A DNA stretch of 64,000 nucleotides, taken from Psammoneis japonica (taxonomy: Eukaryota). Below, piece by piece: positions 1,809-63,017 of the stretch (position 1 is its first letter; every line of letters begins with the position of its first letter). The notes below the pieces were generated by a model. It was not told the DNA's origin. It saw only the letters and a program-made list of their open reading frames with translations, and made no database searches. A program made the translations under genes and the position numbers. The stretch covers positions 223,075 to 287,074 of the forward strand of contig QPGO01000083.1 of the NCBI GenBank assembly GCA_008632985.1. Reading direction: 5' to 3'.

Positions 1809-2246
1809 TGGCGCACCCACTCAAATTTTATGCACATGAAGCTCACCAGTGTCTGAGCATTTTCTTTCTTCCGAATGCTGGGGAGTGGATGACAGTGACA
1901 TGTCTCGCTCAGAATCTTTTGTCATCACAAGAAAACCAGATCTGTGTTTAAAGTGCTGTCACTCCATTGCCAGCCAGGCCGGCACCGGCCGCCAACCCAC
2001 ACTTCCAGCACACCGTCAAGTGCGGCAGAAGCTGACTCTAGGATCAGCCGGAGTGGGCATCACCGTGAGATGATGCCCCTCCGAAACAGCTGGCAACTGA
2101 GCAAGTGCCGTGAAGCACGTCATGCTTTGCCTTCTTGAGGCTGTCTTTCAGGTGTGGTTTGTCCATGGCAACCCAATTCATGATCCATGAAGTGGAGTGG
2201 GACATGTGATTGTTGACTGAATCTGAGAGCACTTCTCTGTCCTCAG

Positions 2247-2491
2247 TGACAGAAAATGAAGATGACTGGGTGGAAGAAAACAACAACTCCTTGCTGCTGT
2301 CTAAATGGCAGATGAGTGTCCATGCAGAGACCATTGCAGGAGCCGAAAGACTGGTGTCGTGATGTCGGCACTGCTGTTGTTGTTCTTGTGAGCCAAGTGG
2401 CTCAAAAGCAAACTGCATTGCGCGACGCACACGGAACTGAGAGCACACATGATCATGTGTGACAAACTAAAATCTTGCTCAAATCCTGTCA
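2247..2491 (-). repeat. 3' LTR of copia element A
   Basis: Direct repeat of 6556-6800, TG...CA termini. Confidence 0.92.
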
Positions 2492-5400: not shown

Positions 5401-5745
5401 GAGGGACGCTGCATGCTCAGGACCAAGACGATGGTTGGTGAGCTCCTCTTGTGTGAACAATTGAGGGTCATTGCTGACATCCACACCGCCCCAAGCTTTT
5501 GCCATGTGCAGGCTAATCAGCGCAGCTGTCTGTGCTTTGTAACCGCGTGGCAAGGGCATTTGATTGGCGCCATCGTTGCACACAAGGGCACCCAATTGCA
5601 TTGGAGTAAAAGTGAAAAGGTCCTGATGTGAATCGGTTCCATCAATGTTGAGAGCAGAGCGCAATGGACTGTCTGCAGCTTGATTCAGAACAGTGCCTAG
5701 AATGTGTTCGAGGCCATCGATTTGTTGTTGCCTGGTGAGAACCAT
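2479..5745 (-). pseudogene. gag-pol remnant of copia element A (integrase core and most of RT missing)
   Basis: DFKRGIKHD gag motif, DVNDRSIKV, IRVHLVCDVKHDG, KLHKRHTAL, NPADILSKHWG; abrupt junctions LPHI|AEHVGH and MMIFL|ENNKSVV. Confidence 0.85.
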
Positions 5746-6555
5746 GTTGCAACTGGGTGGATGTCAGAACTGGCTGGAGTCGGAGGGTGAGCTTGAAATG
5801 ACTTGAAACTTGACTTGAATCTTGACTTGATGTCTTGAACTGTCTCAAGAGTCAGAAGCCGCTGGGCTGTGACATCCTGTTTGCAGCCAAGTGCTGAGCT
5901 TCCTGTCCGGTCTGTAGAGTTGTGCCGGCACGTCTGAACCCACAGCTGGCGACGCTTTGGGTTGCTTGAGAGCGGAGTGACGGGTTAAAAACCCCTGCTG
6001 ACAAGCCAGCCAGAGGTGGACAAGACCTCCAAACCGTTCTTGTTTTATGTGGGTTGGATGACCCGATCAGGCCGGCCAAATTTGGCACTGTGGAGGGACG
6101 AACAAATGTGGGAAATGCACCCTCGCCCCAATGCAGGCTGTGATCATGAACTGCTTCCTCTCACAGTTGTCCTCGTGGACCTTGCAGGACTGTGGAAGAC
6201 CAGCAATCCGGTGTAGATACAAAGCGGTAGACTTGGCGTGCGTGGAGCAGAGCCAGAGTCAGGGGTTTGCATCGTGTGCGCATGGATGCGAGCGGATGGA
6301 TTGGCAGGATCCGCTGTGAGGAATCCGGAATCTCGGATGTCTGAGAATTTGGGAATTCCTGGCCAAAGAAACATCTTGAACAAACACATCCAACGATGGG
6401 AGGCATTGGATGAATCCAAACGTGTGGATTCAATGCAGTGTCCAGCAGTGAAGAAGGTGGACATGCACTTCCACCACAAACGGTGCGTGTCGTCGAAAAT
6501 TTCTCGATGACAATGATGAACGCTCAATGGATGACAAAGAGCAAGACTGTTTGTC

Positions 6556-6800
6556 TGACAGAAAATGAAGATGACTGGGCGGAAGAAAACAACAACTCCT
6601 TGCTGCTGTCTAAACAGCAGATGAGTCTCCGTGCAGAGACCGTCACAGGAGCCGAAAGACTGGTGTCATGACATTGGTGCTGCTGTCATTGTTCTTGTGA
6701 GCCGAGTGGCTCGAAAGCAAACTGCATCACGCGACGCGCACGGAACTAAGAGCACTCACAATTGTGTGTGACAAACTAAAATCTTGTTCAAATCCTGTCA
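6556..6800 (-). repeat. 5' LTR of copia element A
   Basis: Direct repeat of 2247-2491. Confidence 0.92.
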
Positions 6801-7564
6801 CTCAGCAAGACATTCCTGTCATTTGTTGTGTGCAGCCACAAGTTTGCCTTCCGCCTGTTGGCATTGAGATGATTTCCTTGTCTCTGCATCATGGTCATGA
6901 ACCTCCTGATTGTGTTCTTCCCAAAGTTCCCACCAGAGCTTCCAAACAAAAGTTCCCATCTGCACTCCCCAAACCGGAGGCGGGCGATTCTCCCTGCGAC
7001 ACTTTTTCAAAAGGCAGGCCCATTTTAAGAAGGTGCATCTCTCCTGAAAAACATTCCAAACCCTTTGACATCACAACGGCAATCTTTTGCACTGTAGAGT
7101 CATTGCGCAAAACTTGTGTGGAACAGCACCAAGACAAGTGATGGAAAGTCTGTCTGTCTGTCCTTGGCGAATTTTGACTTTGCAAAAAATGGACTTGACT
7201 CTTTTCTGACAAGGCGCGTTTTTTTTCAATGCAATCTGCAGGCATTCTCAGCTGTTTTAGATGCATTCCAGGCCCAGGTGGGAGCTCCATGTTGCAGCAC
7301 TGACATGTGACACAATTGTTTTTTTGTCATCCGTTGCGTGTTTCACGCGCACATTTCTGCATGTGATGTGTTTTGCGAAACCCCAGACGTTTTATTTGAC
7401 AAAATTGTGGGAACACAAATGCACCAGGTGCATTCTTAAATGTCTGAAGAATGCACCTGGCCAAGCAGAAAATGATGTGTTTCAATCACAGACGAGTTTG
7501 TGCATTTGCAAAATTGCCTCATTTTCTGTTGGAGATCATTGACATGTTAATCACCTGACAATTT

Positions 7565-14849: not shown

Positions 14850-16800
14850 TAATGCTTGCACAAAAGGGAGCTTGCTTCAAAGCCTGATTGCAGAATTTTT
14901 GGTCTTGGCCCAAGCCACAAACAAATGACAAACAAATGGACCCAATTCACTGGCCTGGAGCCTTCTTCCCAGTTGGCAACAAAAAGCTCTCTCTGGAAAA
15001 GGCTTCATGAGAAAATTTGCAAGTTGGTCCCTGACTCAACTTTGATGACCACAAATTCATGGCCATGGGACCAGAGCCAGGGTCTTTTGACCAGAAAACA
15101 CTTGGTGCAGTTGGTGGTGACATGGCGGTTGGTTGTGATGAAGAAGGCACCTTGACTGTCCTCATGAATTTGTGCACAAACAGAGGTCTCAAGGTCTCAT
15201 TGGGCATCAAAAGTCAATGCTGCTTCTTGCAGCATGCTTTTCAAGGGCAAGAGGGTTCTGAGGGCAAAAGATGTGGCTTGGTGCTTGGCTTCAAGAGTCG
15301 AGCACAATGGAGCAGTCTGGAGCTGGGGTGTTTCTAGACCAGAGCACAGGTGTTGGGGGATGACAAAACATCTGGTGCGGGATCAGATGGAGCTTGAGTC
15401 AGAACCCAGTTCTTGGTGAAAGAGAGACAGGCAAAGTCAGCACTGACCTGCAAGTTAAGATCCAGAGCACTCGTGAGAGACATCCACAAGATGCCCTCAG
15501 CTTGCACTCCCTTGAGGAAGCATGTGAGAGTCTTGATCACAGCAGCATGTGGGTTCTTGGGAGCCAAGTTGAAGTGCACACAACTTGACTTGTGGCCAAA
15601 GCAATGTCAGGGTGAGCATTTGCAGACAGACACAAGAGCATGCCAATGATGCCCGGCTGGGTTCAGGGCTCATGCATGGGCCTGCCAGCAGGATCACTGC
15701 CAAGTGCTTGAATGGCTGCCACCAGCAACACATTGGGTTTGCAGTTTTCCATGACCATGGCAGCAAATGTCTCATCAATCAACTCAGACTGAGATGATTT
15801 GACAGTGCTGTTGGCTTGGTCTTCAAACTTGATTCTGAGAAACTCAGCAAAACTCCTTTTCTCAGTCCATTTGAATCCTCTTGTGTGGCCCTTCAATGGG
15901 CTGATGATGCTGTCAACAGCAGACTCACAGTTTGATCCCACAGCCAGTCATTGACACACAAACAGACCATGCAGTCACAGTGAGAGCATGGCAGGAGGCA
16001 AGGATCAATTTTGCTCTGAACAAATCCCAGATCAAGAAAAGCTTGGACTCTTGCCAAGCTTTGGACAAGTTTGGGGCCAAGAGTGGACCTGAGCCCCTGT
16101 GGCAAATGAGCCCACATGGGATCATCTTGTGGGACGCACTTGTTTGCATGAAGATAGACTGAAGCAAAATCAGCAGATGTGGTGATCCATCCCATCATCA
16201 CACTGAATGCAAGGAACAGTTGAGTCACACTCTGTGCAATGATGGGAGCAAAGGTGTCAAAAATGCCATCCAGCAAATCTGCTTGATGACATCATTGGGC
16301 CTTGTGTTTCTTGATTTCTCCAGACAATGGGGATTTGCAGATTGCTTGTGGCAGAATGCCTGCCAAGCTCCAGGAAGTGATCTGGATTTGGCAGACAATG
16401 TCGGGACTTCAATCAATGCGTGCACCTTGGCACATGAGAGCCACATCAAACCATTCTGAAAGAGTCTCTGTGGGGCAATCCTTGACAACCAAGTTGGAAG
16501 GCAAAGAAAGTGTGAAAGGCCAAAGCTGGGGTGTCAGCAGTGGTGGCAGATGAAAACCAGCATTGTTTTGCACTCATCCAAAACATGGCCAGAAGCATGT
16601 CTTTGATGGCAATGACAACACTGCCCTGGGTGGCCATTTCTGTGTCCTCATGAGTCATTTCTGGTTGAGCATGCAACAGCACAAGTTGCTGTGTTTGGTT
16701 TTGGGTGGGTTTCACAAGCCGATGCTCAAGATTCTTCCAAAAGCACTTCCAGTGAAGTCACCAAGTTGACACAGACAATTCAAGACAATGGTCTTCAAAG
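14850..16800 (-). mobile_element. Degenerate copia RT/RNaseH remnant
   Basis: DTFAPII, SADFASVYLH, LGFVQSKIDPCL, CLCVND (expected YVDD), PKNPHAAVIKTLTCFLKG, QVSADFA; many frameshifts. Confidence 0.75.
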
Positions 16801-17229
16801 TTTCTTGTGTGCTTGGGCCTCAGCCACAGATTTGAGTTGATGCTGTGTGCATCCATGGGCACAATGTTGGGATGGCATGCACAGTGGTTTGGCTCAATTT
16901 TGTCAACACTCGGAAGCAGTTTTCTCATCAAGCAATTTCAGAAAAGCAGAGCCTCATGACACACCAATGGGGAGTTGTCAGCAGCATCGCCAACAATGAA
17001 AAGAGTCTCGCTGCAGATGTGTTTTCACTTGGGCCACTTGCAGCCATTTTTCACAATTGGGGGTGCACACATGGCGGCTTCATCCCACGACAATGTGTCA
17101 AAATCCTTGGCTTTCCAATGGGCAGCCTTGTGCACCTGTGAGGAGTGGTGGCAGAGGTGGAAGAAGGCAATGAAACAAGCCAAATGTCAACATCCTTGAG
17201 ATCAATTGTGCCCACAATGCTGGGAGGAG

Positions 17230-19092
17230 CATGCTACCGGCGGCCTCAACCGGTCCCGGCGTCCGTGACTGAAATTTCACCACGGTGAAGTACGACAATC
17301 GAATAATTCGATTGGACTCAACCGGTCCCGATTTTGCATTAAAAACGGCATGTTGTACTTTGATGCATCTCGCCATGGCATACGTCGTGATGACGATGCG
17401 TTATGCAGGGGGGATCTTTTTCTACCATTGTTTTAAAGAGGTTGATATGTTGGTTTGGTTTCCTGGGGTGCTTTGGTTGCTACACATGCTATAAACGGTT
17501 GCGTGCCTCGACTCGTGACTCGATTACGGCACGGTGCTGGTAACATCTGAATGGTCGACAACGTTGCGTGGTAAGTTCTTTCCATATTTTCTCATTTTAT
17601 ACCGTTTATGCGCTCACTAAAGATGTTGTTGGTGCTTTGTTATAGCTTCATAGGTTCATTGATCGTCTCCTACGGTTGATTATCGCTTCTGCAATATTGG
17701 CATCTTGTTCACGGCGTTTGCACCGCATCAGCGCTCCAAGTAAGGAGCCTTTCGCTTGCTCCCACGCAATGATCTTTTGTGGAAAGTTTCATATAATATT
17801 GTTGGGCTTGTGACACTCTTGGCTTGCTTCTAAGGGACTTGATCGGCTCTTAATAACGGCATTTCGTTTTTCGGCCATCACAATTTCTGAAAAGTGCATG
17901 CATTCAGAATGAAACGATGCGAAGGAGCATCGAGGACACCTATGACGTTGGTATTTGTCAGACAGACGTACCATAAACCAAAAAAGCTTTCCCTGTGAGT
18001 ATGTTGTGATTGATTGAGTTTTGGTCTCGTTTTGACGAAACTCGCATGCCTCACTAGCGTTTTTTGGTGTCTTCAGTTCATACGTCAGGCATGTGGTCTA
18101 TAATGACCCTTTCTTCCTACTCTGCAATGGCATTATCATCACTATCTAAGAAATTATATCGCCCACGCTATTTTGGGAGATCTTGGTAGTGTATCGACTA
18201 GTCTAGGCTTTGCAATGGGTAAAATGGGGAGGTGGAGGCTTTTATGGCCGGGCCCCTCGCCTACTCTTGGATGCGTGGATGCAACGAACAGCTGGTGGTA
18301 CTTGATGCAATGAAATTTGGTAATGCAACTCAGAACTACCTCTGAAAGGTGCACTAGTGAGTATACTGTGATTTGTGTCCTCATTGGCTTATTGTTGTGT
18401 GCTTTGTTCCGCTCATATTTTCATTTTGCCTGTCATTTTTTCAGCATGGATATCTAGGACTGCGAGCGCTTAAAGTGGCCTTTCCATGCCAATGCTCTAC
18501 ACAGCTGAAGTCCTTTGATAATAGTTGTTCCTTTGGGGAATCAGATTGTGGATCTTTCAGTATCTAGTGGGGTCTAGAGAGGTACGAGTTATGGATGCAC
18601 TGTACCGCTAGAGTGCGCGTGCGCGTGCGCGTGCGCGTGCTTCGCCATTGCGAATGATGACTAACCGATCTTACAGATCTTAGGTGGAGACAATTGTCCT
18701 GGTCTTGCATCCGTGAGGCAACTGTGGAAGTATCAAGGAAACTATCGAATGCATTGTCCATTTGTGATCTTCTACGGGTACTCGAAGCGGCGTTTTCGGC
18801 ATTTTCCGTCGACGACGAAAAGCTTGATAATCCATTAAAACGACTTATGGTATTTTGTCATTCTTTGGAGGTATGATAGTATAACTCTTGGTATTGTAGT
18901 TTTCTTTAGTGGTATGATTGTATCGCTTGTCCGTCGGGAAGAACAAACTACCGGTATCTTGCGTTGTCATTGCGCTGTGGGGCGGGTTGATGCGGCGCAG
19001 CGGCGCTCGGAATTCAAATCGAGCGAGCGTCCGTCAGTCAGCCGGCGGGACCGGTTGAGGCAGCGGGACCGGTTGAGGCCGCCGGCAGCATG
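17230..19092. mobile_element. Segment bounded by 29-bp inverted repeats; possible TIR element carrying an intron-containing gene or gene fragment
   Basis: CATGCTACCGGCGGCCTCAACCGGTCCCG (17230-17258) vs CGGGACCGGTTGAGGCCGCCGGCAGCATG (19064-19092); extra subterminal CTCAACCGGTCCCG copies; interior keeps TpA and has GTAAGT/GTGAGT donors. Confidence 0.55.
18613..18640. repeat. (GTGCGC)n short tandem repeat
   Basis: gtgcgcgtgcgcgtgcgcgtgcgcgtgc. Confidence 0.85.
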
Positions 19093-20470
19093 GTTGCAAG
19101 TGGAGCACCTGAGGGAGGTGGTGGGTGGAGTTTCCTCCCTCTGTCAGGGTGGCAGAAGTGGCTCCCTCTCTCTTGTCTGAGACTGTGGGATGGATTCTGG
19201 GATGCAGAAGACTCTCATTGAGGACTGGGTGCAGTGCTGGGTGTGGCTCCAAAACAGGGATGTCTCCCTCTGAGATGAGTCTGGGATGGCAGGAGCTGCA
19301 GGAGACTCCAAAAGGAGGTGAAGAGAAAATGACAGGATCTGGCAGAGCAGGGGCAGGACGCAAAGGCATTGCAAGAGAATGGGGAGGGGCCTGAGCTGCA
19401 CAGGGGGGACTTGGAGAGAGGTGGCAGAGGCAGAGGCAATCATGACTCAGTGGCAGCGCACACTTCATGCAGTCTTTGACGGCAGTCATCAGCATGTGGT
19501 CCTGGTTGGCATCACTCAGGGATGATCTTTGTTGTCCAAAGTGTGCTGGCATGCCCTGTCACCAAAGAGAGATTGCCTTTCAGGGGTGTCTGATCCAAGC
19601 TGACTGCAGCAAACCAACTGTCAAAGACAATGTGAAATTGTGGAATGATGGCACCTGCAGGCAGGGCTGATGATGTGTGCAACAAGCACTGAAGCTGGTG
19701 GCGCAAACATGCTGGCTTGAACAGGGTTGCCACCTTGGCATTTTCTTCCCATCAGCAAGTGAGTCATGTGGACCATGGATTTCTGATGCAAGTGCCACTG
19801 GCACAAACCTGGGAGATGCATTCAGTGCAAGCAGTGTGTCCCTTTCCAATGACAGCTCAACTTTGGCCATTGGTGCACTGCAGCACACAGAGCACTGCCC
19901 AGGGAAAAGGCTGAATTCAAATGCACACACTTGAAGAATCTGCCTTGGCACCAGAGGGTGGACTGGTTGATGGTGAGGGCATTGGCAAGGACTGTTTTGG
20001 TGGTTCAGAGTTTGTGGCAGACAATCTGACTGCAGCTTCTTTCAGAGCTTGGGGTGATGATCTCAGCGAGGAAGACTCTGTCACACTTGTGTCTTTGCAA
20101 GCAAAGGCACTGCAATTCAAGAAATTTGAACAATCAACTTGCAAGACAAGACAATGACCATCCTCTCTTTGCTCATTCTTCCGAAACCTCACCCGCCCTC
20201 TGGCCTGGCTGCACCAGCTTGGGATTGTTGGGAATGAGTCTTGCACTCCAATCTAGTGAAGACTTTCCAGTCCAAACAAATGGGCACCACTTCCTTTGCT
20301 CCTTGAACTAGAAGAACACAGGAGAGCGAACGAGAAAGGCGGCACCAGCGCAGCCGCTCCCAACTGGAAGGTGCGGCCGGCGGCCGGAGTGAGCGCGCGT
20401 ACGTCGCGCGCAATGCTCCATGCATCCTGACCTTCAACCGTTTCTTGTGTTTTGAAATTTGAAACCCCGC
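19093..20470 (-). mobile_element. Copia-derived fragment (integrase C-terminal region)
   Basis: GKKMPRWQP and GAIIPQFHIVFDSWFAAV match the GKKLPRWQP...PQ.HV.FDD motif also present in element B; TpA-depleted. Confidence 0.7.
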
Positions 20471-24628: not shown

Positions 24629-26746
24629 CTCCCCTAAAACTCTAACCACCAAAAACCGAGGGGTCGGAAGCGCACTTTTGGGAGCTCTTTTTCTCCGCAC
24701 AAAAAACACGCGTTTCGTCGACTTGACCATGACGACCTCCCGTTCTTCGTCCCCCACACTGCCTGACGTGTCCCCGCCTGCCATGTCTGATGCGGCAGTC
24801 CCTCCTGTGTTGGCCGGTGCCGTTACACCCACTGTCGTTACCCAAACACAGCCGATTTGCCATCCGGAGGATTTGGGCTTCTGTTCGCCGGATCCTGTGC
24901 CTGAAACACAAACACAGCGCCGTGATTGGTCTGCTCCTGTCATTGCGTCCCCGGAGAAACTGGGTTCTCGTTCGCACCGCCGTGTTGTGGAAGGTGCTGA
25001 TGAGCCTTCTCTCAAACGGTCTGGGGTGCAGCTCCGAAACCAGGTCAAAAAACAAAAGCAACAAACCGATGTCAAGGTTCAGTGGGCGTGGCAGAGGAGC
25101 ATCTATGACAGGAGGTGTGGTGACAACCTTTCTCAGGATGATTGTTCCTGGGCAGAACCTTGTCCATCTGGAGGTGATTGAGACTCACCCAGAGCCCAGC
25201 GGAACCAATCGGAGCCAACAACAAGTGTCAAGATGAACCACAGCAACATGTGAAGGAGGACACAGCTGATGGAACACGGGCAGAGAAGGTGCCGGCATGC
25301 AAAGTGGCAGCATGGCTGTCGACAAGGCACCAGTTTTGAAGGTCTAACAGTGACAAACATGGTGAGCATTTGCCAAAAGCACGTTGCTGCCTGCCTCCAT
25401 TTTAGCAACATGCAAAAACAGTGTGTTGCACATCACATGCAGAGCTCAAACGGCGAGAGTGGCCTCTCATGGAGTTGCACATGATGACCCAGTCCTGGAA
25501 AATGGAGCAGTGTCCAAGTCACATGCACCATTTGAAACCTTGCCAAGTCACCTGCAAACAAATGCCAATTCGCTGACCTCTCCAACTTGAAACTAAAAAA
25601 CTGTGAAAGCATGCCTGCCATCCAACTGTTGTCAGGTTTCTAATTTGCAGAGAGCTGCATGATGTGTCTGTGTGTTCTAAAGATCAGACTGCACTCGAGA
25701 GCTGACCAAGAGGAACCATTCATGTCCATTGATGTGTCATCCATCAGCAGGCCGTGGTTGTGTGGGTTTCCTGGTCTGCCGTCATCCGTCATCCATTGTG
25801 TTCCTTCCAAAGCAAAAACAACAACAGCATCAACAGCAGCTGCAGCAGCAAGGGTGGGATCAACAGTGTCGGGCATGCCAGGGGGCCGAAACGCAGGTGC
25901 GGCATTGGAATTCGTGACAGTGTCTGTGGGAGGCGGTGGGGCAAGAATGAAAGAAGTGTGAGTTACAAGCATTTCGTTGTGGACGTTGTTGGCAAAAGAC
26001 AACAACAGTGTCAACAGTGCCTGCGGCAGCAAGGTGGGAGCAACAGTGTCGGGCATGCTGGGGGGCCGAAACGCAGGTGCGGCGTTGGAATTCGTGATGG
26101 CATCTGTGGGAGGCGGTGGGGCAAGAATGAAAGAAGTGTGAGTCATTGGCATTTCATTGTGGACGTCATTGGCAAAATGCAGTGACAGCATCAACAGCAC
26201 CTGCGGCAGCAAGGGCAGGAGTGACAGTGTCGGGCATGCCAGGGGGCCGAAACGCGGGTGCGGCGTTGGAATTCGTGATGGCATCTGTGGGAGGCGGTGG
26301 GGCGAGAATGAAAGAAGTGTGAGTCATTGGCATTTCATTGTGGACGTCATTGGCAAAATGCAATGACAGTGTCAACAGTGCCTGCGTCAGCAAGGGTGGG
26401 AGCAACAGTGTCGGGCATGCCAGGGGCCCGAAACGCAGGTGCGGCGTTGGAATTCGTGATGGCATCTGTGGGAGGCGGTGGAGCGTGCAAACAACAGTGT
26501 GAGTTTGCAGCATCTTATTTTGTGCGCATCACACCCACGAGAACCGGAATGATGACATTGCCTGTTGCATCAGTGTTGTTGGCAACGGTGTCAGCAGGAT
26601 CGGCGTCCTGGGAAGGCGATGGGGAAGAACCACGAGGCATCATCATGGTCGAGTCGACGAAACGCGTGTTTTTTGTGCAGAGAAAAAGAGCTCCCGAAAG
26701 TGCGCTTCCGACCCCTCGGTTTTTGGTGGTTAGAGTTTTAGGGGAG
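24629..26746. mobile_element. Nested element with ~110-130-bp inverted repeats
   Basis: CTCCCCTAAAACTCTAACCACCAAAAACCGAGGGGTCGGAAGCGCACT... with its reverse complement ending ...GTTTTAGGGGAG at 26746. Confidence 0.8.
25830..26482. repeat. Tandem repeat, ~180-181-bp unit, ~3.6 copies
   Basis: ACAGTGTCGGGCATGC recurs at ~25863, 26043, 26224 and 26405. Confidence 0.92.
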
Positions 26747-39475: not shown

Positions 39476-39904
39476 CTAGAGTAATTAGCTACAAACAGTG
39501 TAATTGAATGAAACGCACGCCGCCACGTTCATTCTAAGTCTTGCAGTACATTGTACAATTAATCCTCTCTCCCTTACCAACTGCTAGACCTATGATCTCT
39601 AGCTAGGTCTAGTACTTCAGGTTACTTCAAACTTTTTTCAGGCCCACACCTCGTCTTGAGTCGAGTCGTCGTCTCGCGGACGAATTGCGCGCCCAGGAAC
39701 GCGCGCGCTAATTTTTTCGCAACCTCAACGTCCGCTTCCGTTTTGAGCGTTGAAGTAAGCGGACATCAGAATTTGCCGCCAACGTCTTCGGCACTTTATC
39801 ACCAACTTGCTTTGTCTGCACCTCTTGTGTCTTGTGTCACATCCATCTGCTTCTTTTGTCTTGGCCTTAGCGTTGGTTCTCATCATTCATTCAAAATCTG
39901 TATC

Positions 39905-41080: not shown

Positions 41081-41379
41081 TTAAGTGTCGTGAGTGAAGA
41101 AACAATAGCAGGAGTCGTACTCGTTAATTGTACTGCATAGCACTGTGTTGATGAATGCAGCCGTTGCCACAAGTGACTGCACTCTTTAAATAAATGATGG
41201 ACAGCTAGCTTAACGAAAAATCATGCTGGAAGGGACTCGTTTGTCCAGCAAGCCTCGGCGGATGTAAAAGAGATCGACACTGACCGCTACTGATCAACCT
41301 GTGTCAACAACGCTTCACTCGCGAATAATGCCTTTTAGAATCCACTCCCTCGCGCCATCGCTCGGGTCAGTTTCGTGCA

Positions 41380-42633
41380 CGACGTCTCCTGCTTGAGCCT
41401 TCCAGTGCGGGCTGATTCGTCCCACTGCCATGCGGTGCTGACTCCCCGCATCTGTAAGTGGAAATCAATCAACAGAGTTGGTACGAGACTCAACCCACTC
41501 GTTTCAATGATGAATGTGTTGCTCTCATTGAGGTTGCATCAACTTGTTGGTGCACATTCCTTGCGTTTTCTCCACTTTTGTGCTTCTTCTTTTGTGGCTC
41601 TGCTTCATCAACACCAACCAGCTCTCGTCGTTTGCCATCACTGGAAAACAGGAGGCTGACACTCTCATTCCTGGTGTGAGATTGAGAAGAGCAACAGCAT
41701 GACATGTGATTGAGCCTGTTGGAAGGACCAGGCCTGGTGCTCTTTGCAAACAGGGTGTCGTTGTGTTCCCGCAACAGCCCAACAGCTTTTGGCTCATTGT
41801 CACCGCTTTCATCGCCAGCCATGGCAAAAGTCGATGGTGTTGAGCCACCTGATGCTGCAGGAACACTCCCTGTTGTTCCCAAGGCTTCTCCTGGAGGAAT
41901 GCTGGTTGTTGGGCAGCTGGAATTGGTCGGAGGAGGTGTGACAGAACACACAAGGGGGGGTTGATGGATTGCCGGATGCGCACCTTGAGATCCCGCCAAA
42001 GCCATTTTGGCTCAAAGCAAATCTTTTTGTTGGGTCAAATTGTCAACATTCTTCTTGCACAGATTCTTTTCCCAATGTGGCACATTGGCAACTTTCAATC
42101 TCTCGAAATCACGGTGAGGTTTGTTGAGCGTGCTAAGATCCTTGATTTTCCTGTCCACGACTCTGCTGAAGTCCTTGGAACAACCCGTGGCTGATCTCGG
42201 GAGCACTGCTGAAGACCCCAACTTTGACAAATCAAGGTGAATCTTTGACAATGACTTGGCGCCATTCAAATCAAGCTTCAGTGGCTTCGATTGAAGTTCC
42301 ATTGTGAGCAGCTGATGGACAATTTGACGTGAAAATCGTCCGACACTCAGGTGGTGCAATTGGCAGCGAGCGACAGATGTGAATCAAAACTTCATCCAAT
42401 GAGCATGTGCTTCCCAGCATCAACAGCAACTGTGCAACGCATCGCTTGTCAAATCGTCATGGTCATGCAGTGGCAGGCCTCCGAATTTCACACACCATGG
42501 TGCGGTGTGTTTTTTTTTGTGTGGGATCCTTGAGTCCAGTTGAACGCGATTTCGTTCGAATCGAGCTCTGTGAAGTGATCTGCCCTGCAGCACTTGGTGA
42601 CATCGGAGCTTGAGTCGACGCAGGCCAACTGCG
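41380..42633. mobile_element. Decayed TpA-depleted repeat next to the copia B insertion site
   Basis: Composition only; Tyr-free ORFs. Confidence 0.4.
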
Positions 42634-42638
42634 TAGAG

Positions 42639-42833
42639 AGTTGACATCTGTCAATCTACCTGTCGACTGCGCGCAATCGCGCGCTTCAATTTTCAAATTC
42701 CGCCATCAAAACTCTGCTCGACACTGCAGTCATAATTTTCAGTCAGCAACTTTTGCAACAACAACAGCCACTAGTTTACAACCTTGAGCATCAGCTCTTT
42801 CGACATCTGCAGTTGTGCATCGGCACAACAAGT
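42639..42833 (+). repeat. 5' LTR of copia B
   Basis: Gapless match to 49907-50101 with 12 differences. Confidence 0.95.
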
Positions 42834-43337
42834 GGTCATCGAGCCCAAACGTAGTGTGTAGAGTCTTTAACCGGAACTGCACCGATCCACCGTGTTCTCG
42901 TCAGAACGCGACAGTCATCTCAAGCCGTCGATCGTCCGTTTCAAACGGAATCACCGTTCATCGATTCGACAGACGTCTCCAGTCTGTCGACGTTGATGCC
43001 ACGTACAGCTGAGCCTCCCTCCTTCGTCGACAGGCTCGCACGCATTTTCCCGCCGCCGGAACCGATCCACGGAGCCGGAATCATCATCGTCAAGCGTCAT
43101 CATTTTCGGCCGTTGCGACACCAAACCCGGATTGAGTCGTTTCGAACTCTCCGAGTCTGTGCCAAGTCAAGACCTGCCTCTCACGCCATTCGACGACGAT
43201 GCTCTCGTTGCCGATTGATTGTTGAGCTTCTGCGGCAGTCTCCCAACGATGTGGCGTCAAGAACTTCATTTTGCCGTTTGTGTTTCAAACTCTACGTAGC
43301 TTCAGTGCCAAGTTCTACGCATTGACTCAAATCCACC

Positions 43338-45539
43338 ATGGCCGGAACGCCGTCAAAGACTCCGTCCAAGACCCCCAAGGGTGCCAAGACCCCGCAACAG
43401 AGGAGTCAGACTCCTCAACCTTCTTGAACCGGCAATGGGACACCTGCTGCTCCCGCTGGTAAGAACAGCAGTTCCACCACAGGAGCTAATCAACCTCTGC
43501 CTCCTCCACGGCGTGGAGGGATCCATCCAGAATGTGGGCGACACATGGGCGGTTCTCCGTTAGACGACGACTGCAAGCCCAAGCTGCCTCGTTCCTGCCG
43601 CTCAACTGACCAGTCTCGCGACAAGAAGATTCTACCGCACATCGAACGTGCTCTTCGCGAAGCTCAAGACGGAACACTCGTCGTCAAGTTTGACGGAAAC
43701 CTCGAGCTCACAGACACGACCACCAACAAGCTCGATCAATCCCACTTCGTTCAAGCTGTCCGCACCCTTGTCAAGGAGCATGGCTTGGAGAACTTCTTCG
43801 CCATGAAGCTCGAGAAGAAGGTTGTGTCGCCATTCGACCATCTCCACTCTTTTATGGTCGACGAGGTGATTGCCGAGTGCCTTCATCGCGCCAACGTCGC
43901 CAAGGACTTCACTGCCTATGATGATTACGAGCACAACGATGTCGCTCTCTCCCAATTGGTTGTTGAGTCTAGAATCTCACACCAATTCCGCGAGAAGATC
44001 GAGGTCCAATTCGGACATGACGATCTCTTTGAGCACTGCCCCGGTCAAGTCTATTTGATGATGGCTTTGGATGCTTGCAATGCGTCTGCCACACATGACG
44101 TTGCCCAAGCCGCCGAGGATCTCGATGCTCCATCGCTTGCATCCTACCTGGGTGAGGACGTGACTGAGTTCGCCACCGAAGCTCTCCGTCTCACCAAGCT
44201 GCTCCAAGCCGGGTGTGCGTCACCTGTCAACCTCGGGTCGAGCATTCTCAAGAAGTGCCAAAAGACCTCATGTGAGGCATTCAATTGCAAGATTTACGCC
44301 AAGTTGGACAAGGTGTCGACCATGGAACACAAGCATCGCCTTGGCGATCCCAAGGCGATTGCCGCCAACTCCGACTATGATGAACTCGGGCCCACAGCGT
44401 GCACTTCCTTTTTGCAGAAGGAGCATCGCTTCTGCGTCACCGACAAGGATTGGCCCGGACTTTCCACCAAGCTCCCTCAGAGCAACAACGCTTCCAAGAC
44501 CGGAAAAGGGGCCTGCAATGCATGTGGTGCTCCAGACCACTGGGCCAATGATCCCAAGTGTCCCAAGTGTGCCGAACGTCAGAAGCGCAAGAAAGAGAAA
44601 CGTGAGCAGCGTCAACAGAATGGTCGCAAGGATGACCCGACGGTTCCACCTGCCACTGCACCGCCTCCTGCGTCTTCCGTTACGGTTGATGCTGTCCCTG
44701 CTGACAAACAAGCCAAACTCAAGGAGTTGCTCACCAACGAGCCCCATCGTTACACCCGTCCGGCGGACCTGTCCAAACCCGTCGTGAACAAGTGTGGTTC
44801 GACCACGTGTTTTTGTGGAAAGTGCACTTGCAAGCACACCGGCATTCGGGGGATGTGTGCGAATCACAAGGAGTCAGATCATGTTCGCAAACCACCGAAA
44901 CAAGAACCACCTGCGGCTGGTCTTACCTCCATTGACGACCCAGATTCGGGCGTCCCACCTGGGCCACCCACTCAGACTGCTCCAGACCCAACCAATGCGC
45001 CCGAGCCCTCTCCTGCTGAGGACGAGCTTGTTTGGACTGGATTCCATTGTTGTGTGGTCGAGGACTCGTCTCCTCCCACCCCGTCTGTCATGCGAGTCTC
45101 CTGCAAACCCGCTTCTGCATCTCAGAGGGAGCGCCTGCCGGTTGCAGTCGAGACCATCGAACCTGAAGATGCTGATGACTTCAGCGATTGCTTCGATGCA
45201 CATGACGACCTGTCTTGGGACGATTCCATTGTTGTGTTTCCGCCCATGACTGCTCCTTCATCCAGTGTCCCCACTTCAGGCACTCTGGCTCCTGTGGCAG
45301 AGTTCTTCTTCGATGCCGAGTCCGGACCCGAACCCGTGCCGGATCCACCGGTTCCCCAAGCTCACCATCCATTGCCATGGGATCTCCTCAAGCTCCCGCT
45401 CTTTTGGATCTCTGCAATGCTTTGGGAAGGTCTCCTGTGGCTCGTCTGCTCCCAGGATGATCCCCCCCCTCCTCCCCGCTGTGAACGTCGCCTCAAGCAC
45501 GCCCTGCGCTGCATCGCCACCCCCATCATTGGGGCGTGA
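43338..45539 (+). pseudogene. copia B gag with CCHC zinc knuckle
   Basis: CNACGAPDHWANDPKC; start inferred at ATG ~43338 with a frameshift into ORF 43545-45539. Confidence 0.75.
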
Positions 45540-48500
45540 TTGCGTGCGCAATTGCGCTTTGGCATTTTGTGTGCAGCGGCGCTGTCCCTCCCCACCCCTT
45601 TCAATCATTGGACCGCCTCTCTTCTCCAACATGCAAAGTTGTCTCTGCTCTCGATGAGCGCGTCGATCTGTCGCCTGGTGCGTTCGTCCAGTGCCATGCC
45701 ATCAAGGTCAGACAATTCAAATGTGAGTTGGCGTGCTCAGAGGGAGACAAGCAAGACACCGCCACTCTGCCTTTCGAACTTTCCAAGTTGGTTGACAAGA
45801 GTGACAACGACGATTTCTTTGATGCGCACACGGAGCGCCCCGTCCATGCGGAATGCTTCTTCGATGCTGCCACCTTCCGCGAGTCTGTCTGCTCAAGCCC
45901 GGATGTCTTCGGCATTGCTGACTTGTGTCACGCCTGCTACTTCGTCGACTGCACCAATGCTCCGGAGCTCGCTACGGAGGATCCATCGGCTTCCCCCGCT
46001 TTGCCGACCTCCGCTGCACTTCGTGCTGTTTCCGGGGAGACCCAACTTACGCGTCTCGCCGCTGATCCCCAGGCCCTCTTCCACATCGGACCAAGTGATC
46101 TCCAGGTTGTTTTTGATGCTGGTGCCTCACAGGCCATCACTCCTGACGAGAAAGATTTTGATGGTCCGATCAAGTGCTGCCGGACCCCGCTCCGCCTCGG
46201 CGGCATGGCTGACGGCATGTGCATCCCTGGTGAGGGCACCGTCACGTGGACCTTTCAAGCCAGGGAGGGTCACGAAATTGCTGTCCAGCTCCGTGCCCAT
46301 TTCGTCCCATCCTCCAAGGTTCGCCTGCTTTCTCCACAACGTCTCTTCCATGCAGACGGCATTGAAGGACATTTTTGGGGTGACAGTGAGATTTTCAAGG
46401 TTTGTTTCACAGACATGCCGGAGTTGATGCTCGAGTGCGATGAGCGCTCCCACTTGCCGGTTGGCTGCACGACTCTCGGTTCCATCCATGCACCACAAGT
46501 CAATTTGAGCACTGTCAGTGACCCGGACAATCTCAATCTGTCTGCTGGACAGAAGCTTCTCAATGAATGGCATGCGCGCTTTGGGCACTTACATTTTCCC
46601 AAGATCCAAGCTCCACTCCGCGGCCATCTGTTCGAGGCCATGAAATTCAAGGCAGCATCCAAATGCGACATTCCAAAATGCGACACATGCGAATGTTCCA
46701 AGGCTCATCGCCGTTCTTTGAAGTCTGCCATTCACAAATCCGACCCCAAGCGCGATGGAGCATTGAAGGCTGACCATCTCAATCCCGGCCAGTCCGTCAG
46801 CGTCGACCATTTCGAATCGCGTCTCAAGGGCCGCACCTGTGATTCACACGGCAAACCGTCCTCCCAGCAGTGTGTTGGCGGCTGCATCTTTGTCGACCAC
46901 GCCTCTGGTTACATCCACGTTGAACACCAAGTCGGTTTCTCCGCAGTCGAGACTGTTCGAGCAAAACAGGCATGTGAGACCATGGCAATGGGACACAGCA
47001 TGATCGTCCAAACTCACCTCACCGACGGCGGCGCTTTCAAGGCCAACCAGTTCGTTTCCCACATCCACAACTCCCAGCAACGCATGCACTTTTGTGGCAC
47101 CAATGCTCATCATCAAAATGGTGTTGCCGAACGCTCCATTCGGCCCATGTCCAATGTGGCTCGCGCCATGATCCTCCATGCTTCGATTCACTGGCGTGGC
47201 GGCATCGACAGCTCTCTGTGGCCCATGGCAGTGCACCATGCTGCCCACATCTACAACACTGCTCCCGGCGCCCATGGTCTGTGTCCCGCCGACATCTTTG
47301 CTGGCTCTGCCGTCCCACGCCACCGCCTCCATGATCTCCACGTTTGGGGTTGTCCTGTCTGTGTCTTGGATCCCAAATTACAGGAGGGCAAGAAACTTCC
47401 CCGTTGGCAGCCGCGTTCTCGGCGTGGTGTCTTTCTCAGACTCAGCAATGTTCACGCCAGTGAGGTGCCATTGGTCCTCAATCTCAATGCTGGCTCCATT
47501 GCTCCCCAGTGCCACGTCATGTTTGACGATCTCTTCACCACGGTTGCTTCGATCGTGAGGGAGAGCGAACCGCCGGATCACTGGGAAGAATTGTGGTTGG
47601 AGAACACCACTCAAATTCCCTTGGACTCGTCTGACAGACCGTTGTTCCTTCAAGATGACTGGCTTGCTCCTGCTGAACTTGAACAGAAACGACGACACGA
47701 GACTGGGGAACGCAACATTCGCGCTGCACGTCAACAGCAGCAGAACTTGCCAAAACCCACTGAGAAGCCACCACCTGCAACGGATCCTTTGCAACTCCAA
47801 ATCCACCGCCGTCTACACCATCGATGCCAACAACTGCAGTTGATCCATCACCGACACCACCGCCACAAACACCGTCGCTTCAAAACCCATCATCGCCGAT
47901 GCCTCCAGTTGATGATCCTCCACCTTCAGTCGTACGTCCGCCATCTGCTGCTGGCGATGGTCCGGGCACGTCAGTCCCATCCACGACTGCTCCAGTCCCA
48001 CCTGAACCCTCATCCACGACTGAGACACCAGGGGTGCGCCGATCCCAACGGTCGAACAAGGGTGCGCGCACAACTGCTCGTTTCGCCGACGAAGCATGTC
48101 TGGCTTCTGTCATCCCTGACGATGTTGGAGGACAACAGGCTCAGCTTGCCCATTTGGCTGAGATCCAGACTGACTGTGATTCGGGTGTTTTGGACATTCA
48201 GGACCCGCGGATCTACGCCACTAAAGTCAAACGCGATGCGGACAATCCGAACATTTGCGAGGCTCTCTCGGGTGATTTTGCCAAGCAGTGCATTGAAGCC
48301 ATGAAGACAGAGGTATCTGCTCTTGTCCATCGTAAAACGTGGCAATTTGTGAAGCGGGAGAAGCCAATGAATGTGCTCAAGTCCACGTGGGCATTCAAGT
48401 TGAAACGATTGCCGGATGGCACGCCGCTCAAGTTCTCAAAGCGCGATTTTGTGTCCGAGGAGATCTACAAAAAGAGGGAGTTGACTGCTTCGAGACCCAC

Positions 48501-49883
48501 GCTCCAGTGGTCCAACAGTCGACCATCCGTCTCGCATTGAGTGCCGTCCTACAAGAAGGATGGACCACCCGTCAGGTTGATTGCACCAACGCTTTTGCGC
48601 AGGCCGAGATGACGGAAGACGTTCACATCGAACCACCCAAGTGTTTTGCTCCCAGTTCGGGATCCAATGTTGTCTTGAAGCTGCTCAAGAGTCTCTGCGG
48701 TCTCAAGCAAGCTCCCAAGTGCTTCTTTGATAAGCTGCGTGAAGGATCATTGGAACGTGGATGGACCCAGTCGCAAGTCGACCCGTGCCTGTTTTTCAAG
48801 GACGGTGTGATTTGTGCAGTCCATGTTGATGATGCTGTCCTCGCTGGCAAGAATGGAGCCGCTCTAGAAAATGAGATCAAGGCTCCAGGCATCCAAGACG
48901 ACGAACAACGCCATGCATTCGAGTTGCGAAACGAGGGAGAAGTTGGTGACTTCCTCGGTGTCAAGATTCGCAAAACCGGACCCAAGGAATTCCTCCTTGC
49001 CCAGCCTGGACTCATTGACAAGACCCTCAAAACAGCTGATGTGGAAGATTGCCGCTCTTCTCCCACTCCTGGCACTGCCTCCCCATGTCATGCGGATAAA
49101 GAGGGAGCCGAATTCGACGAGAACTGGGACTGCCGTTCCGTCATCGGCATGTTGATGCACCCATCATCCAACTCCCGACCAGATGTCTGCTGCGCCACGC
49201 ATCAAGCCGCTCGTTTCTCATGTGCTCCCAAGCATTCTCATGCGATTGCGGCGAAGCGCATTCTGCGCTACTTGCAAGGCACTGAGGACAAGGGACTCCA
49301 TCTACGCCCTGGCGACAACGAACGTGTTGATTGTTTCGTTGACGCCGACTTCGCCGGCCTCTGCGGTCACGAAGACACTCAAGATCCGGTCAGCGTCAAG
49401 TCCTGCACCGGACATGTCATCTTGCACTGCGATTGTCCTGTTTTATGGGTTTCTAAGCTACAGACGCAAATGGCACTCTCCACAATGGAAGCCGAGCACC
49501 TTGCTCTGTCGGCTGCGATGCGCGATCTGACCCCGATTCGTGAAATTTTGAAGGAATTCAAGTGTCATGTTTTCGGTCTCACGGATTACAAGACCCCTGC
49601 CACCACCAAGTCCAAGGCCTTTTCAGATGTAAAGGATGGTGCGATCCCTTCTTCAGCAGTTTATGAAGACAATCAGGCGTGCCTCAAGTTTGCGAAAATG
49701 GCCAAGTTGTCTCCACGCACCAAACACATTGGCACTCCCTGTCATTGGTTCCGCACCAAGGTCGAGGCTCTTGAGATCCAGATTGAGCCTGTAGGAACTG
49801 ATTCCCAGTTAGCTGATCAATTTACGAAGGGACTTATTACTGACAAGTTTGAATCTGGTCGGTTGAGTCTCTCAGGCTGGTGG
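45536..49883 (+). pseudogene. copia B pol (protease, GAG-pre-integrase, integrase, RT, RNaseH), frameshifted and hypermutated
   Basis: VFDAGAS (PR), WHARFGH...CDTC, SVDHF/HLTDGG/NGVAER (IN), KARFCVRG, CGLKQAP, HVDD (RT), VDADFAG, EAEH, YEDNQAC, QLADQFTK (RH); frameshifts near 47800 and 48433. Confidence 0.93.
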
Positions 49884-49906
49884 CTCTACCTACGGTTGAG
49901 AGGGAG

Positions 49907-50101
49907 AGTTGACGTCTGTCAATCTACCTGTCGACTGCGCGTAATCGCGCGCTTCAATTTTCAAATTCCGCCATCAAAACTCTGCTCGATATTGCAGTCA
50001 TAATTTTCAGTCAGCGACTTTTGCAACAACAACAGCTACTAGTTTACAACCTTGAGCATCAGCTCTTTCGATATCTACAGTTATACATCGGTATAACAAG
50101 T
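49907..50101 (+). repeat. 3' LTR of copia B
   Basis: Follows the PPT; followed by TSD TAGAG. Confidence 0.95.
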
Positions 50102-50169
50102 TAGAGTGTACATTTTAGGCGGCGAGCGACAACACATAACACGGCATAATCTTTTTGGGTGATCCAACC

Positions 50170-56250: not shown

Positions 56251-56581
56251 TTCTCTTCGTTGAACCCGTTGGAGGCGTCGACAAAAAGAAATCCGTAGTC
56301 GTCTTCGAACTCATAAACTGCATTTTTCGTCAATTAGCAATGGAATTTCGCCGAAAATAATACGAAAAACAACAAACACTACATCATGCTGTAGAAGTGC
56401 GCGCTGGACACTTCGATTTCAGATTGCATCAACGACGCCTGTAATCGGGAATAACGTCAAACTTCAACCTTGCTTCAACTGACAACTGACCTTTTGACTT
56501 TCATTGCGATGACTGCTGATTGCGTGTTGTTGCTGTCAGCTTTCTTGTTGCTCGTTGTAAGAGACTCGCATTCCCATCATC

Positions 56582-62973: not shown

Positions 62974-63017
62974 TCTTACCCATCATAATATCCCCCAAAG
63001 TGAGGCAAGATCCAACC

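Follow-up and report, generated by a model that had tools for sequence, protein, structure and literature searches.

Evidence for post-integration TpA to CpA/TpG mutation of a Ty1/copia retrotransposon and other repeats in a diatom genome

Results

A dead copia element among TA-poor repeats

We analysed a 64-kb stretch of a diatom genome (the window), which contains a recently inserted Ty1/copia retrotransposon that is now dead (copia B, Table 1). The element has direct LTRs (195 bp, 94% identical), a TAGAG target site duplication and an RVT_2 reverse transcriptase with the integrase upstream of it. Because the same 5-bp TSD stands at each end, both LTRs belong to one insertion, which speaks against their deriving from different insertions, one of the two circumstances that the earlier note on this DNA named as able to overturn it.

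Copia B is not an intact or active copy: its polyprotein is split over three frames, the catalytic YVDD motif of P0003 reads HVDD and 18 of 22 conserved tyrosines are gone. Homologues of P0003, with 47-65% identity, carry RVT_2, and the Gag-like P0001 gave no Pfam match. The gag_pre-integrase and SH3-like matches in 45485-48304 score under the Pfam cut-off; P0002 lies in a different frame from its neighbours and its final ~200 residues look out of frame, while contigs of DNA run X1 show an extra C behind 45499 in other copies. The 3' LTR adjoins a normal gene.

Table 1 Positions of copia B, its parts and the other repeats of the window.
Feature	Position	Strand	Details
LTR element A	2242..6805		LTRs 2247-2491 and 6556-6800 (TGACAG...CTGTCA), TSD CTCAG
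Old TA-free, CpG-poor copia relic	15014..19762	-	pol fragments 15014-16402 and 19584-19762
181-bp tandem repeat within TA-free island	25814..26519		8 CA/TG swap columns
Older TA-free island adjoining 5' LTR	41489..42633		segment 41489-42652: 2 TA, TA o/e 0.03, CpG o/e 0.56
Left TSD of copia B, TAGAG	42634..42638		read directly, identical 5-mer at 50102-50106
5' LTR of copia B, 195 bp, mutated copy	42639..42833	+	4 TA left; CA/TG at 9 sites where 3' LTR has TA, CA at 2 sites where it has CG
Possible primer-binding site TGGTCATCGAGCC	42833..42845	+	putative, from its TGG start at the LTR edge; no tRNA gene in window
Gag-like open frame P0001	43428..45539	+	aligns to upstream parts of related elements; Tyr 1.0%
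Protease/integrase frame P0002	45485..48304	+	gag_pre-integrase and SH3-like domains; Tyr 0.4%
Reverse transcriptase/RNase H frame P0003	48336..49906	+	RVT_2, E = 6e-28 (in 48336-50003); frame continues into LTR
Polypurine tract GAGAGGGAG	49898..49906	+	immediately precedes 3' LTR
3' LTR of copia B, 195 bp, unmutated copy	49907..50101	+	13 TA (16.6 expected); TpA/ApT 0.87
Right TSD of copia B, TAGAG	50102..50106		read directly

Among the other repeats, element A has no recognisable pol gene, and the old copia relic is interrupted by a TA-normal TIR element (17230-19092, TA o/e 0.74). TA is present in this region only at 17235-18955, inside the ends of the TIR element. Pfam searches of 57 open frames from TA-free islands returned only two weak matches, RVT_2 (E = 6e-4) and GAF (E = 2e-4), so most islands have decayed beyond naming; a tblastn search with homologues free of the mutation added one further copia relic.

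Differences between the two LTRs of copia B

The LTRs (42639-42833 and 49907-50101) were aligned with MAFFT and the differences in the 195 ungapped columns were sorted by script. The alignment reproduces the 12 differences described in the earlier note, whose quoted example strings are present, and every one is a transition (LTR positions 8, 36, 84, 86, 110, 131, 166, 171, 177, 179, 186 and 188). Nine have TA in the 3' LTR and CA (6) or TG (3) in the 5' LTR, two have CG in the 3' LTR against CA in the 5' LTR, and one, likewise, T against C in a TT context; TA occurs 4 times in the 5' LTR and 13 times in the 3' LTR. CA and TG outcomes are both present within positions 166-188.

The probability that at least nine of 12 random transitions fall at TA sites is P = 2e-6, and this class accounts for only 4 of the 30 differences seen across eight LTR pairs of related elements in metagenome contigs (Fisher P = 2.5e-4). 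All 12 differences can be assigned to the 5' LTR (two-sided binomial 5e-4), in which 9 of 13 TA, 2 of 12 CpG and one other site in 195 have changed. Between LTRs of equal age, a TA loss of nine against none has a two-sided P of 0.004. Polarity, however, cannot come from the LTR pair alone, since in the reverse direction nine of 12 changes at the 38 CA/TG sites are also non-random (P = 5e-5); direction rests on Tyr codons, TA depletion and CA/TG swaps elsewhere.

We found no evidence of long single-strand tracts: the outcomes along the 5' LTR (C C C C G G G C C) form three runs, which is not significant (P about 0.11, hand count), and the Tyr outcomes alternate along the pol gene. A simple transcription-coupled model, which would hit only R-U5 in the 5' LTR and U3-R in the 3' LTR, was rejected, as the changes are spread over the full length of the 5' LTR and the 3' LTR has none. 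An exact-match scan with a 38-base invariant LTR stretch gave 0 matches in a genome-contig collection and 0 in a viral-contig collection.

Direction of the change

The whole polyprotein of copia B was compared with 67 metagenome loci at 22 conserved tyrosines and 557 other conserved residues. Copia B keeps only 4 of the tyrosines, against 493 of the other residues (Fisher 4e-13); eight have become histidine (CAY), eight cysteine (TGY) and two phenylalanine, so that T>C and A>G are equal on the sense strand. Against 60 homologues, P0003 keeps one of 12 conserved tyrosines (5 His, 4 Cys). A myosin gene used as control keeps 13 of 17, with one Y>H. TA o/e is 0.11 in the copia B core compared with 0.42-0.86 in the 67 related elements, none of which lies below 0.42, and the Tyr codons 44214/15 and 48624/25 show the other of the two products (CA vs TG) in other copies from the genome.

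Swaps of this kind recur elsewhere in the window. The repeat of element A (248 bp, 2247-2494 vs 6556-6803) has 28 differences, 16 of which make up eight CA-vs-TG swaps; all eight of its adjacent double differences are such swaps, compared with 1.6 expected from CpG decay. Copies of the 181-bp repeat are 96-97% identical in purine/pyrimidine code and only 68-85% in real letters. CpG decay can also produce CA/TG swaps, which are therefore ambiguous in old CpG-poor islands.

The Tyr losses, the TA depletion and the CA/TG swaps at the same sites together indicate that TA changed to CA or TG on both strands after integration. The earlier note had proposed this direction, both-strand action and post-insertion timing on integrated DNA, and its proposals are supported: signature differences separate LTRs of one insertion, 16 of the 22 conserved Tyr codons now read CAY or TGY, and the copy-specific products and the element A swaps agree with them. 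One-strand RNA or cDNA editing is excluded by the both-strand pattern, with which a single-strand-specific enzyme working on either strand of chromosomal DNA may be compatible. We infer post-integration timing for all sites; part of the interior TA loss may go back to a source copy that was already mutated.

TA-free islands and sequence context

TA-free islands occupy 35.7 kb, about 56% of the window, with a TA o/e of 0.03-0.12 compared with 0.32-0.76 elsewhere, and they coincide with LTR elements, the tandem repeat and copia relics. TA is bimodally distributed and the island borders are sharp on a scale of tens of bases. Beside genes, non-ORF DNA has a TA o/e of 0.38-0.76 (one 38-bp stretch at 1.5 left out), equal to or above that of ORFs, and the gene pair 50185-50986 and 63024-63828 (79-87% identity) is not TA-depleted. 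Within this one 64-kb window, TA loss is therefore specific to domains, which suggests targeting to repeats or silent chromatin.

AA is not depleted (o/e 1.23), CA/TG lies above 1 everywhere in the window, and CpG o/e is 0.14-0.59 in old islands. No TA-rich or AT-rich tract is present within the 64 kb. Mutation of copia B is most intense in its central part and weaker at the two ends, and from 49245 onwards TA becomes gradually denser into the 3' LTR.

The loss depends on context. Relative to non-island DNA, the islands have 2% of the TA density at RTAY, 10% at half sites and 33% at YTAR (chi-square P = 1e-22). The surviving TAs are mostly YTAR, enriched in CTAG/TTAG contexts, which implies TAY/RTA as the target.

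Read evidence and copy number

DNA run X1 contains 52% of the words, and no RNA run is listed as matching; as the sole matching run, X1 may be the assembly's own source. Copia B belongs to a multi-copy family, with a summed contig depth of 400-1050 against 61 in the flank bin 41000-41366; the island 41489..42633 has a depth of 145-158. Logan contigs of run X1 break inside this family, and the assembled copia B may be a mosaic of its copies. At site 48467 copia B differs from all other copies among the matches listed, while copy-to-copy letters from the contigs of run X1 include none of the 12 LTR sites among the matches listed. A 9.5-kb Logan contig (k-mers, run X1) matches 41000-42519 with 0 differences, ~1 kb of TA-free island included.

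Discussion

Alternative explanations

The best explanation as a whole, to which we assign a probability of roughly 0.7, is post-integration hypermutation of TpA to CpA/TpG, at the DNA level, in copia B and the repeats of the window. An origin before integration, by editing of RNA or deamination of cDNA, would require a further source for the LTR difference: gene conversion or recombination, at a later time, with a copy that had escaped mutation, or mosaic assembly of a multi-copy family. Both ADAR A-to-G hyperediting and APOBEC cDNA editing of retroelements are known, the multi-copy family with its broken contigs would allow for such events, and sites such as 48467 suggest that part of the pattern may be inherited. 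However, a single template gives rise to both LTRs, which start out identical at integration, while those of copia B differ at 12 sites and those of element A at 28, with signature changes. Moreover, T>C and A>G are equally frequent on the sense strand, the same pattern extends to DNA that is not of retroelements (the 181-bp tandem repeat, relic islands), and the TSD is intact, with a TA rise into the 3' LTR that is gradual rather than abrupt; ADAR favours a 3' G, whereas CTAG/TTAG is enriched among the TAs that survive. We consider this origin unlikely. Still less probable is an artefact in which modified bases of silent chromatin (T or A at TpA, 5mC at CpG) were misread as CA/TG. It would account for the replacement of both TA and CG by the same products in methylated-looking domains, and the sole run that backs the assembled letters may be the assembly's source, but the 9.5-kb contig reproduces about 1 kb of TA-free island without a difference, CA against TG at the same site in different copies fits independent mutations better than a deterministic miscall, and copia B carries frame-breaking indels, which genuine decay of the DNA would produce.

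Targeting would be unnecessary if mutation were biased against TA uniformly across the genome and purifying selection preserved the dinucleotide in genes alone. Genes and their flanks are indeed lowish in TA, and CA/TG is high everywhere. Such a bias is nevertheless very improbable given the TA of non-ORF DNA beside genes, the non-coding TIR element whose TA zone fits inside its ends within a TA-free relic, the unequal loss between LTRs of equal age, and the bimodal distribution with its sharp borders. We give the least credence to a RIP-like C-to-T process, in which CA/TG would be ancestral and the 3' LTR would have gained TA (CpA to TpA on both strands). The LTR pair by itself is symmetric as to direction, and PMC9998398 describes diatom DNMT4 enzymes related to fungal RID. 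On the other hand, this direction conflicts with the Tyr codons of the interior now reading CAY/TGY and with a window devoid of TA-rich or AT-rich tracts; it needs two A-to-G changes making CpG in the same LTR; and C-to-T by itself could yield CA/TG swaps between LTRs only from a CG ancestor. The RIP indices are reversed: against the RIPCAL thresholds of >=0.89 and <=1.03 given in PMC7884421, the copia B core has 0.10 and 1.48 and the old islands 0.07-0.08 and 1.86-1.91. The RIP-like reading is thus already largely refuted.

Proposed mechanism

In the post-integration reading, copia B would first integrate and then be hypermutated at the DNA level, TpA becoming CpA or TpG (A:T to G:C at TA, on either strand) with a preference for TA followed by a pyrimidine (TAY, which is RTA on the opposite strand). 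The process would act on the 5' LTR (9/13 TA lost) and the interior (about 90% lost), halting short of the 3' LTR. Every repeat and relic in the window would likewise lose its TA, while genes, non-coding flanks and the nested TIR element would escape, with slower CpG decay running alongside. The rate would be at least about 100-fold above background substitution, and for this reason we propose that the process is enzymatic and targeted to repeats or silent chromatin. Tyr codons would be destroyed and TAA/TAG stops removed too, so that the dead DNA stays full of long open frames.

TadA/ADAT-like deaminases prefer U/T before the target A, and an enzyme of this type acting on adenine in DNA is one of our leading guesses; the other is oxidation or hypermodification of thymine at TpA, followed by mispairing with G. 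The broader proposal is a previously undescribed diatom genome-defence system, for example a DNA-acting adenine deaminase or a thymine-modifying dioxygenase, which would recognise repeated or silenced DNA and hypermutate it in place, A:T to G:C at TpA (TAY/RTA). As a mirror image of RIP, it would erase Tyr codons and TAA/TAG stops and leave GC-neutral, stop-poor dead transposons full of spurious open frames. We hold this proposal to be evenly balanced between right and wrong. A search of open-access PMC and bioRxiv full text found no description of diatom repeats mutated from TpA to CpA/TpG, and term look-ups in PMC9998398, PMC2806351, 10.1101/2025.10.24.684338 and PMC7884421 gave none either.

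Fungi are known to hypermutate transposons in the chromosome in a targeted way (RIP, C to T). If our reading is true, the strategy would have been invented a second time in a stramenopile alga, with different chemistry (A:T to G:C), and a natural enzyme that alters A or T of DNA within a particular dinucleotide would concern mutagenesis biology and offer a base-editing lead. There are practical consequences as well. As the earlier note anticipated, LTR-divergence ages are inflated, about 12-fold in copia B (12 differences in 195 bp instead of 1). Repeat finders overlook copies whose identity is 97-99% in purine/pyrimidine code and only 68-89% in real letters, and long spurious ORFs are to be expected from gene callers in TA-free DNA. 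Silenced DNA could be mapped straight from sequence by dinucleotide statistics.

Comparison with known systems

Methyl-CpG deamination yields CA/TG products in the same domains, and diatom transposable elements are described as CpG-methylated in PMC9998398. It plausibly explains the two CG-vs-CA LTR differences and the low CpG of the islands, which is part of the pattern only (2/12 LTR differences, old-island CpG); it cannot remove TA, and the 5' LTR lost 9/13 TA against 2/12 CpG. VSP repair, which depletes CTAG in E. coli, and polymerase eta, which makes WA-to-WG errors in somatic hypermutation, also change T:A to C:G at TA-containing words. These processes are, however, slow or genome-wide, or hit AA too, whereas in the diatom AA is at o/e 1.23, CTAG is among the survivors and the changes are confined to repeat domains.

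ADAR hyperediting, the A-to-I editing of retroelement or viral RNA that is fixed by reverse transcription, shares the clustered A-to-G changes and the preference for a 5' U/T before the edited A. It acts on RNA before integration, so that LTRs stay identical and A>G appears on the sense strand only. Here the changes are neither restricted to the transcribed strand (8:8) nor accompanied by identical LTRs; non-retroelement repeats are hit and TAG contexts are relatively spared. To our knowledge, ADARs are metazoan enzymes. APOBEC editing of LTR retrotransposons, described for vertebrates in PMC4866542, is likewise a host-driven hypermutation frozen in integrated LTR elements, but it is C-to-U on minus-strand cDNA (sense G-to-A) before integration; the diatom base change is the opposite and post-integration.

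With RIP of ascomycete fungi, the diatom process shares dense, transition-only mutation of chromosomal repeats on both strands in a strong dinucleotide context, which kills transposons, spares genes and inflates apparent repeat divergence. In the window, too, repeated chromosomal DNA is hit on both strands and single-copy genes are spared. The chemistry runs the other way: RIP converts CpA/TpG to TpA (C to T) in a fungal host and leaves an AT-rich, TA-rich and stop-rich product, whereas the process in the diatom host of copia B converts TpA to CpA/TpG (A:T to G:C), with GC slightly up and TAA/TAG stops vanishing.

Structure and state of copia B

Copia B, together with a second LTR element of the window (element A) and a copia relic, is described in the table below. 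Since its integrase lies upstream of the reverse transcriptase, copia B is a Ty1/copia element. This copy is dead: the polyprotein is divided among three reading frames, and HVDD stands in place of the catalytic YVDD motif.

Features of copia B, element A and the copia relic (window positions)
Feature	Position	Description
copia B	42639-50101	7,463-bp LTR retrotransposon, two 195-bp direct repeats
Target duplication of copia B	42634-42638 and 50102-50106	TAGAG, 5 bp, identical at both ends
Gag-like open frame, copia B	43428-45539	
Integrase frame, copia B	45485-48304	gag_pre-integrase and SH3-like integrase signatures
Reverse transcriptase frame, copia B	48336 onward	RVT_2, E = 6e-28
Purine tract, copia B	immediately upstream of 3' LTR	GAGAGGGAG
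Element A, LTRs	2247-2491 and 6556-6800	target site duplication CTCAG
Copia relic, pol fragments	15014-16402 and 19584-19762	minus strand

Directional differences between the copia B LTRs

Alignment of the two LTRs gives 12 differences, all transitions, and reproduces exactly the counts of an earlier note made from the sequence alone. At nine sites the 3' LTR has TA where the 5' LTR has CA (6) or TG (3), at two it has CG where the 5' LTR has CA, and at one, in a TT context, it has T where the 5' LTR has C. The 3' LTR retains 13 TA (16.6 are expected from base composition) and the 5' LTR 4. The pattern is far from chance: the probability of at least 9 of 12 random transitions falling on TA sites is 2e-6, and among eight LTR pairs from related elements on metagenome contigs the same class accounts for only 4 of 30 differences (Fisher P = 2.5e-4).

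Each of the 12 differences is consistent with a mutation of the 5' LTR, 10 being A:T to G:C and 2 CpG to CpA. Counted in this way, the 5' LTR changed at 9 of 13 TA, 2 of 12 CpG and one other site in 195, and TA loss is thus faster than methyl-CpG decay; it exceeds background roughly 100-fold or more. Dating copia B by its LTRs would overstate its age about 12-fold (divergence 0.062 versus 0.005), an inflation which the earlier note had anticipated.

Ancestral state and strand symmetry

We read the polarity of the change from protein conservation in the copia B polyprotein, and not from an LTR outgroup. Compared with 60 homologues, the RT/RNase H frame departs from consensus at 41 of 262 conserved columns and keeps only 1 of 12 conserved tyrosines, with five changed to His (CAY), four to Cys (TGY), one to Val and one to Phe. 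Leu to Pro (CCA), Leu to Ser (TCA) and Val to Ala (GCA) changes in this frame obey the same rule of TA to CA or TG. Across the whole polyprotein, compared by tblastn with 67 related copia loci from metagenomes, 4 of 22 conserved tyrosines are left (8 Y>H, 8 Y>C, 2 Y>F) while other conserved residues are kept at 493 of 557 positions (Fisher 4e-13). The control myosin gene keeps 13 of 17 conserved tyrosines and shows one Y>H only. Conserved tyrosines were thus lost to His and Cys in copia B and largely kept in the control: TA was the ancestral state and CA or TG the derived one, the direction originally proposed. The even 8:8 split of Y>H and Y>C on the coding strand shows that both strands are equally affected, again as proposed.

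Timing relative to integration

Both LTRs of a retrotransposon are copied from a single template and are hence identical at integration, yet those of copia B differ at 12 sites, all assignable to the 5' LTR, which supports the proposed post-insertion timing. Contigs from X1, the one public sequencing run containing copia B, show that the family is multi-copy, with a summed contig depth of 400-1050 against 61 in the flank bin 41000-41366. These copies differ from copia B at 816 transition and 214 transversion places, and at two conserved Tyr codons the products are reversed: 44214/15 is TG in copia B and CA in the other copies, 48624/25 is CA in copia B and TG in the others.

The 248-bp repeat compared in element A shows 28 differences, of which 26 are transitions; in all 8 cases where two neighbouring bases both differ, CA in one LTR stands against TG in the other. 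Such a swap requires that the ancestor had TA or CG and that each LTR resolved it separately. From the remaining CpGs (5 shared, 8 one-sided), CpG decay predicts only about 1.6 swaps, so that most of the eight derive from TA. LTR asymmetry, differing family copies and the element A swaps thus place the mutation after copying. A 181-bp tandem repeat at 25814-26519, whose copies agree at 96-97% when reduced to purine/pyrimidine code but at 68-85% in their actual letters, has 8 CA/TG swap columns, as in element A.

Two dispersed repeat families (8545-9113/54143-54690 and 859-1813/62327-62970) lie in TA-free, CpG-poor islands; read in purine/pyrimidine code, their copies agree at 85-96%, and CA/TG swaps are numerous, accounting in the first pair for 19 of the 36 adjacent double differences. 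Element A itself is without recognisable pol. Its 884-codon minus-strand open frame lacks a Pfam match, and its plus strand at 4342-5628 has a weak GAF-domain match (E = 2e-4). Element A could be non-autonomous or a captured gene fragment; alternatively, the loss of stop codons may have produced its frames.

TA-poor islands and their borders

The whole window has a TA observed/expected ratio (o/e) of 0.30 and a CA/TG ratio of about 1.47, and its TA distribution is bimodal. Islands, TA-free or TA-poor stretches of repeats and relics, occupy 35.7 of 64 kb with TA o/e of 0.03-0.12 and CA/TG of 1.3-1.9; outside them TA o/e is 0.32-0.76. The copia B core (43661-49244) has 29 TA (o/e 0.11) and a CpG o/e still at 0.86, and older islands are also CpG-depleted (0.14-0.59). 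None of the 67 related copia loci from metagenomes falls below a TA o/e of 0.42. The first TA-free island includes an assembly gap of 282 N (1109-1390).

Island borders can be sharp, as between the last TA at 41482 and the next at 42134. Within copia B, loss is strongest centrally (9 TA in 45001-48000 against about 138 expected) and tapers toward both ends, more at the 3' end. That end adjoins a TA-normal gene-like ORF (50140-51540) and the 5' LTR adjoins an older repeated TA-free island, which explains why the 5' LTR was mutated and the 3' LTR spared. The gene pair 50185-50986 and 63024-63828, 79-87% identical, is unaffected. The paralogous open frames around it (50140-51540 and 62769-63998; 79-87% identical over aligned parts) are TA-normal despite duplication and belong to no Pfam family, with a faint ankyrin match only.

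Gene-flanking non-ORF DNA has a TA o/e of 0.38-0.76 (excluding a 38-bp stretch at 1.5), at least as high as that of ORFs (0.38-0.62). A TIR element of about 1.9 kb (17230-19092; 29-nt terminal inverted repeats), nested in the TA-free copia relic, carries every TA of its region (17235-18955); the DNA outside lacks TA for hundreds of bases. Either it inserted recently or its sequence escapes recognition by the process. Its TA (0.74) and CpG (1.05) ratios are normal, and its terminal repeats are 97% complementary, the sole mismatch being TA against TG/CA.

Neighbouring genes

The control myosin gene (36083-39475) is intron-free. The named proteins that it matches best, with 55-66% identity, come from Nitzschia, Fragilaria, Phaeodactylum, Mayamaea and Fistulifera, which marks the host as a diatom. 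Its motor and IQ motif are followed by a separate open frame (39596-41080) with two PAS/LOV-like domains. Together, 36083-41080 could form one myosin-PAS fusion gene that an intron or frameshift interrupts; Phaeodactylum 'myosin G' is the nearest named relative. The stretch 56561-59396 may hold an NLR-like diatom gene: an AAA_16/STAND-type NTPase frame comes first, then one of 666 codons that matches no Pfam family.

Alternative explanations

If mutation had run in the direction of RIP, fungal repeat-induced point mutation, the 3' LTR of copia B would have gained TA. The tyrosine data contradict this, as do the inverted RIP indices of the copia B core, 0.10 and 1.48, where the RIPCAL thresholds quoted in a passage of PMC7884421 are at least 0.89 and at most 1.03. 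Editing before integration, against which the earlier note had argued, is opposed by the LTR asymmetry, the both-strand symmetry and the 181-bp tandem repeat; that argument stands unless the assembled copy is a mosaic or was gene-converted, as it may be; only then would editing of RNA or cDNA be rescued.

Nor does TA loss reflect a uniform neutral bias, since non-coding DNA and the nested TIR element have been spared. Misreading of modified bases during base calling is an unlikely explanation, as a k-mer contig exactly matches about 1 kb of island and the alternative products differ between copies, both in X1, which may be the assembly's own source.

Context rule and possible mechanism

Relative to non-island DNA, surviving TA density in islands is 2% at RTAY, 10% where only one neighbour is favourable and 33% at YTAR (TTAA, CTAA/TTAG, CTAG; chi-square P = 1e-22). 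From this YTAR survival bias it follows that the preferred target is A in TAY or, equivalently, T in RTA. TA loss this fast, tied to a sequence context and confined to domains, argues for an enzyme rather than a passive bias.

Since TA is self-complementary, one activity on either strand gives both products: A to G in TA would give TG, and the same event on the opposite strand would be read as CA. The chemistry could be adenine deamination in DNA; TadA/ADAT-type adenosine deaminases prefer U/T before the target A. Thymine oxidation or hypermodification at TpA, with a product pairing with G, would fit equally well, and thymine hydroxylation in dinoflagellates and trypanosomes prefers TpA. Recognition may proceed through homology, as in RIP, or through silent chromatin or methylation. 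A candidate enzyme gene was not found within the window.

Consequences and comparison with RIP

As TA loss deletes TAA and TAG, the mutated DNA is rich in long open frames on both strands: 31 of at least 100 codons around copia B, and 57 of at least 120 codons in other islands, 55 of these without Pfam match. The full text of open-access papers and preprints gave no description of a TA to CA/TG process in diatoms or elsewhere. The known system that resembles it is RIP, likewise a repeat-targeted hypermutation with a similar working. The copia B process, however, fails the defining chemical test of RIP, and its direction of mutation is reversed.
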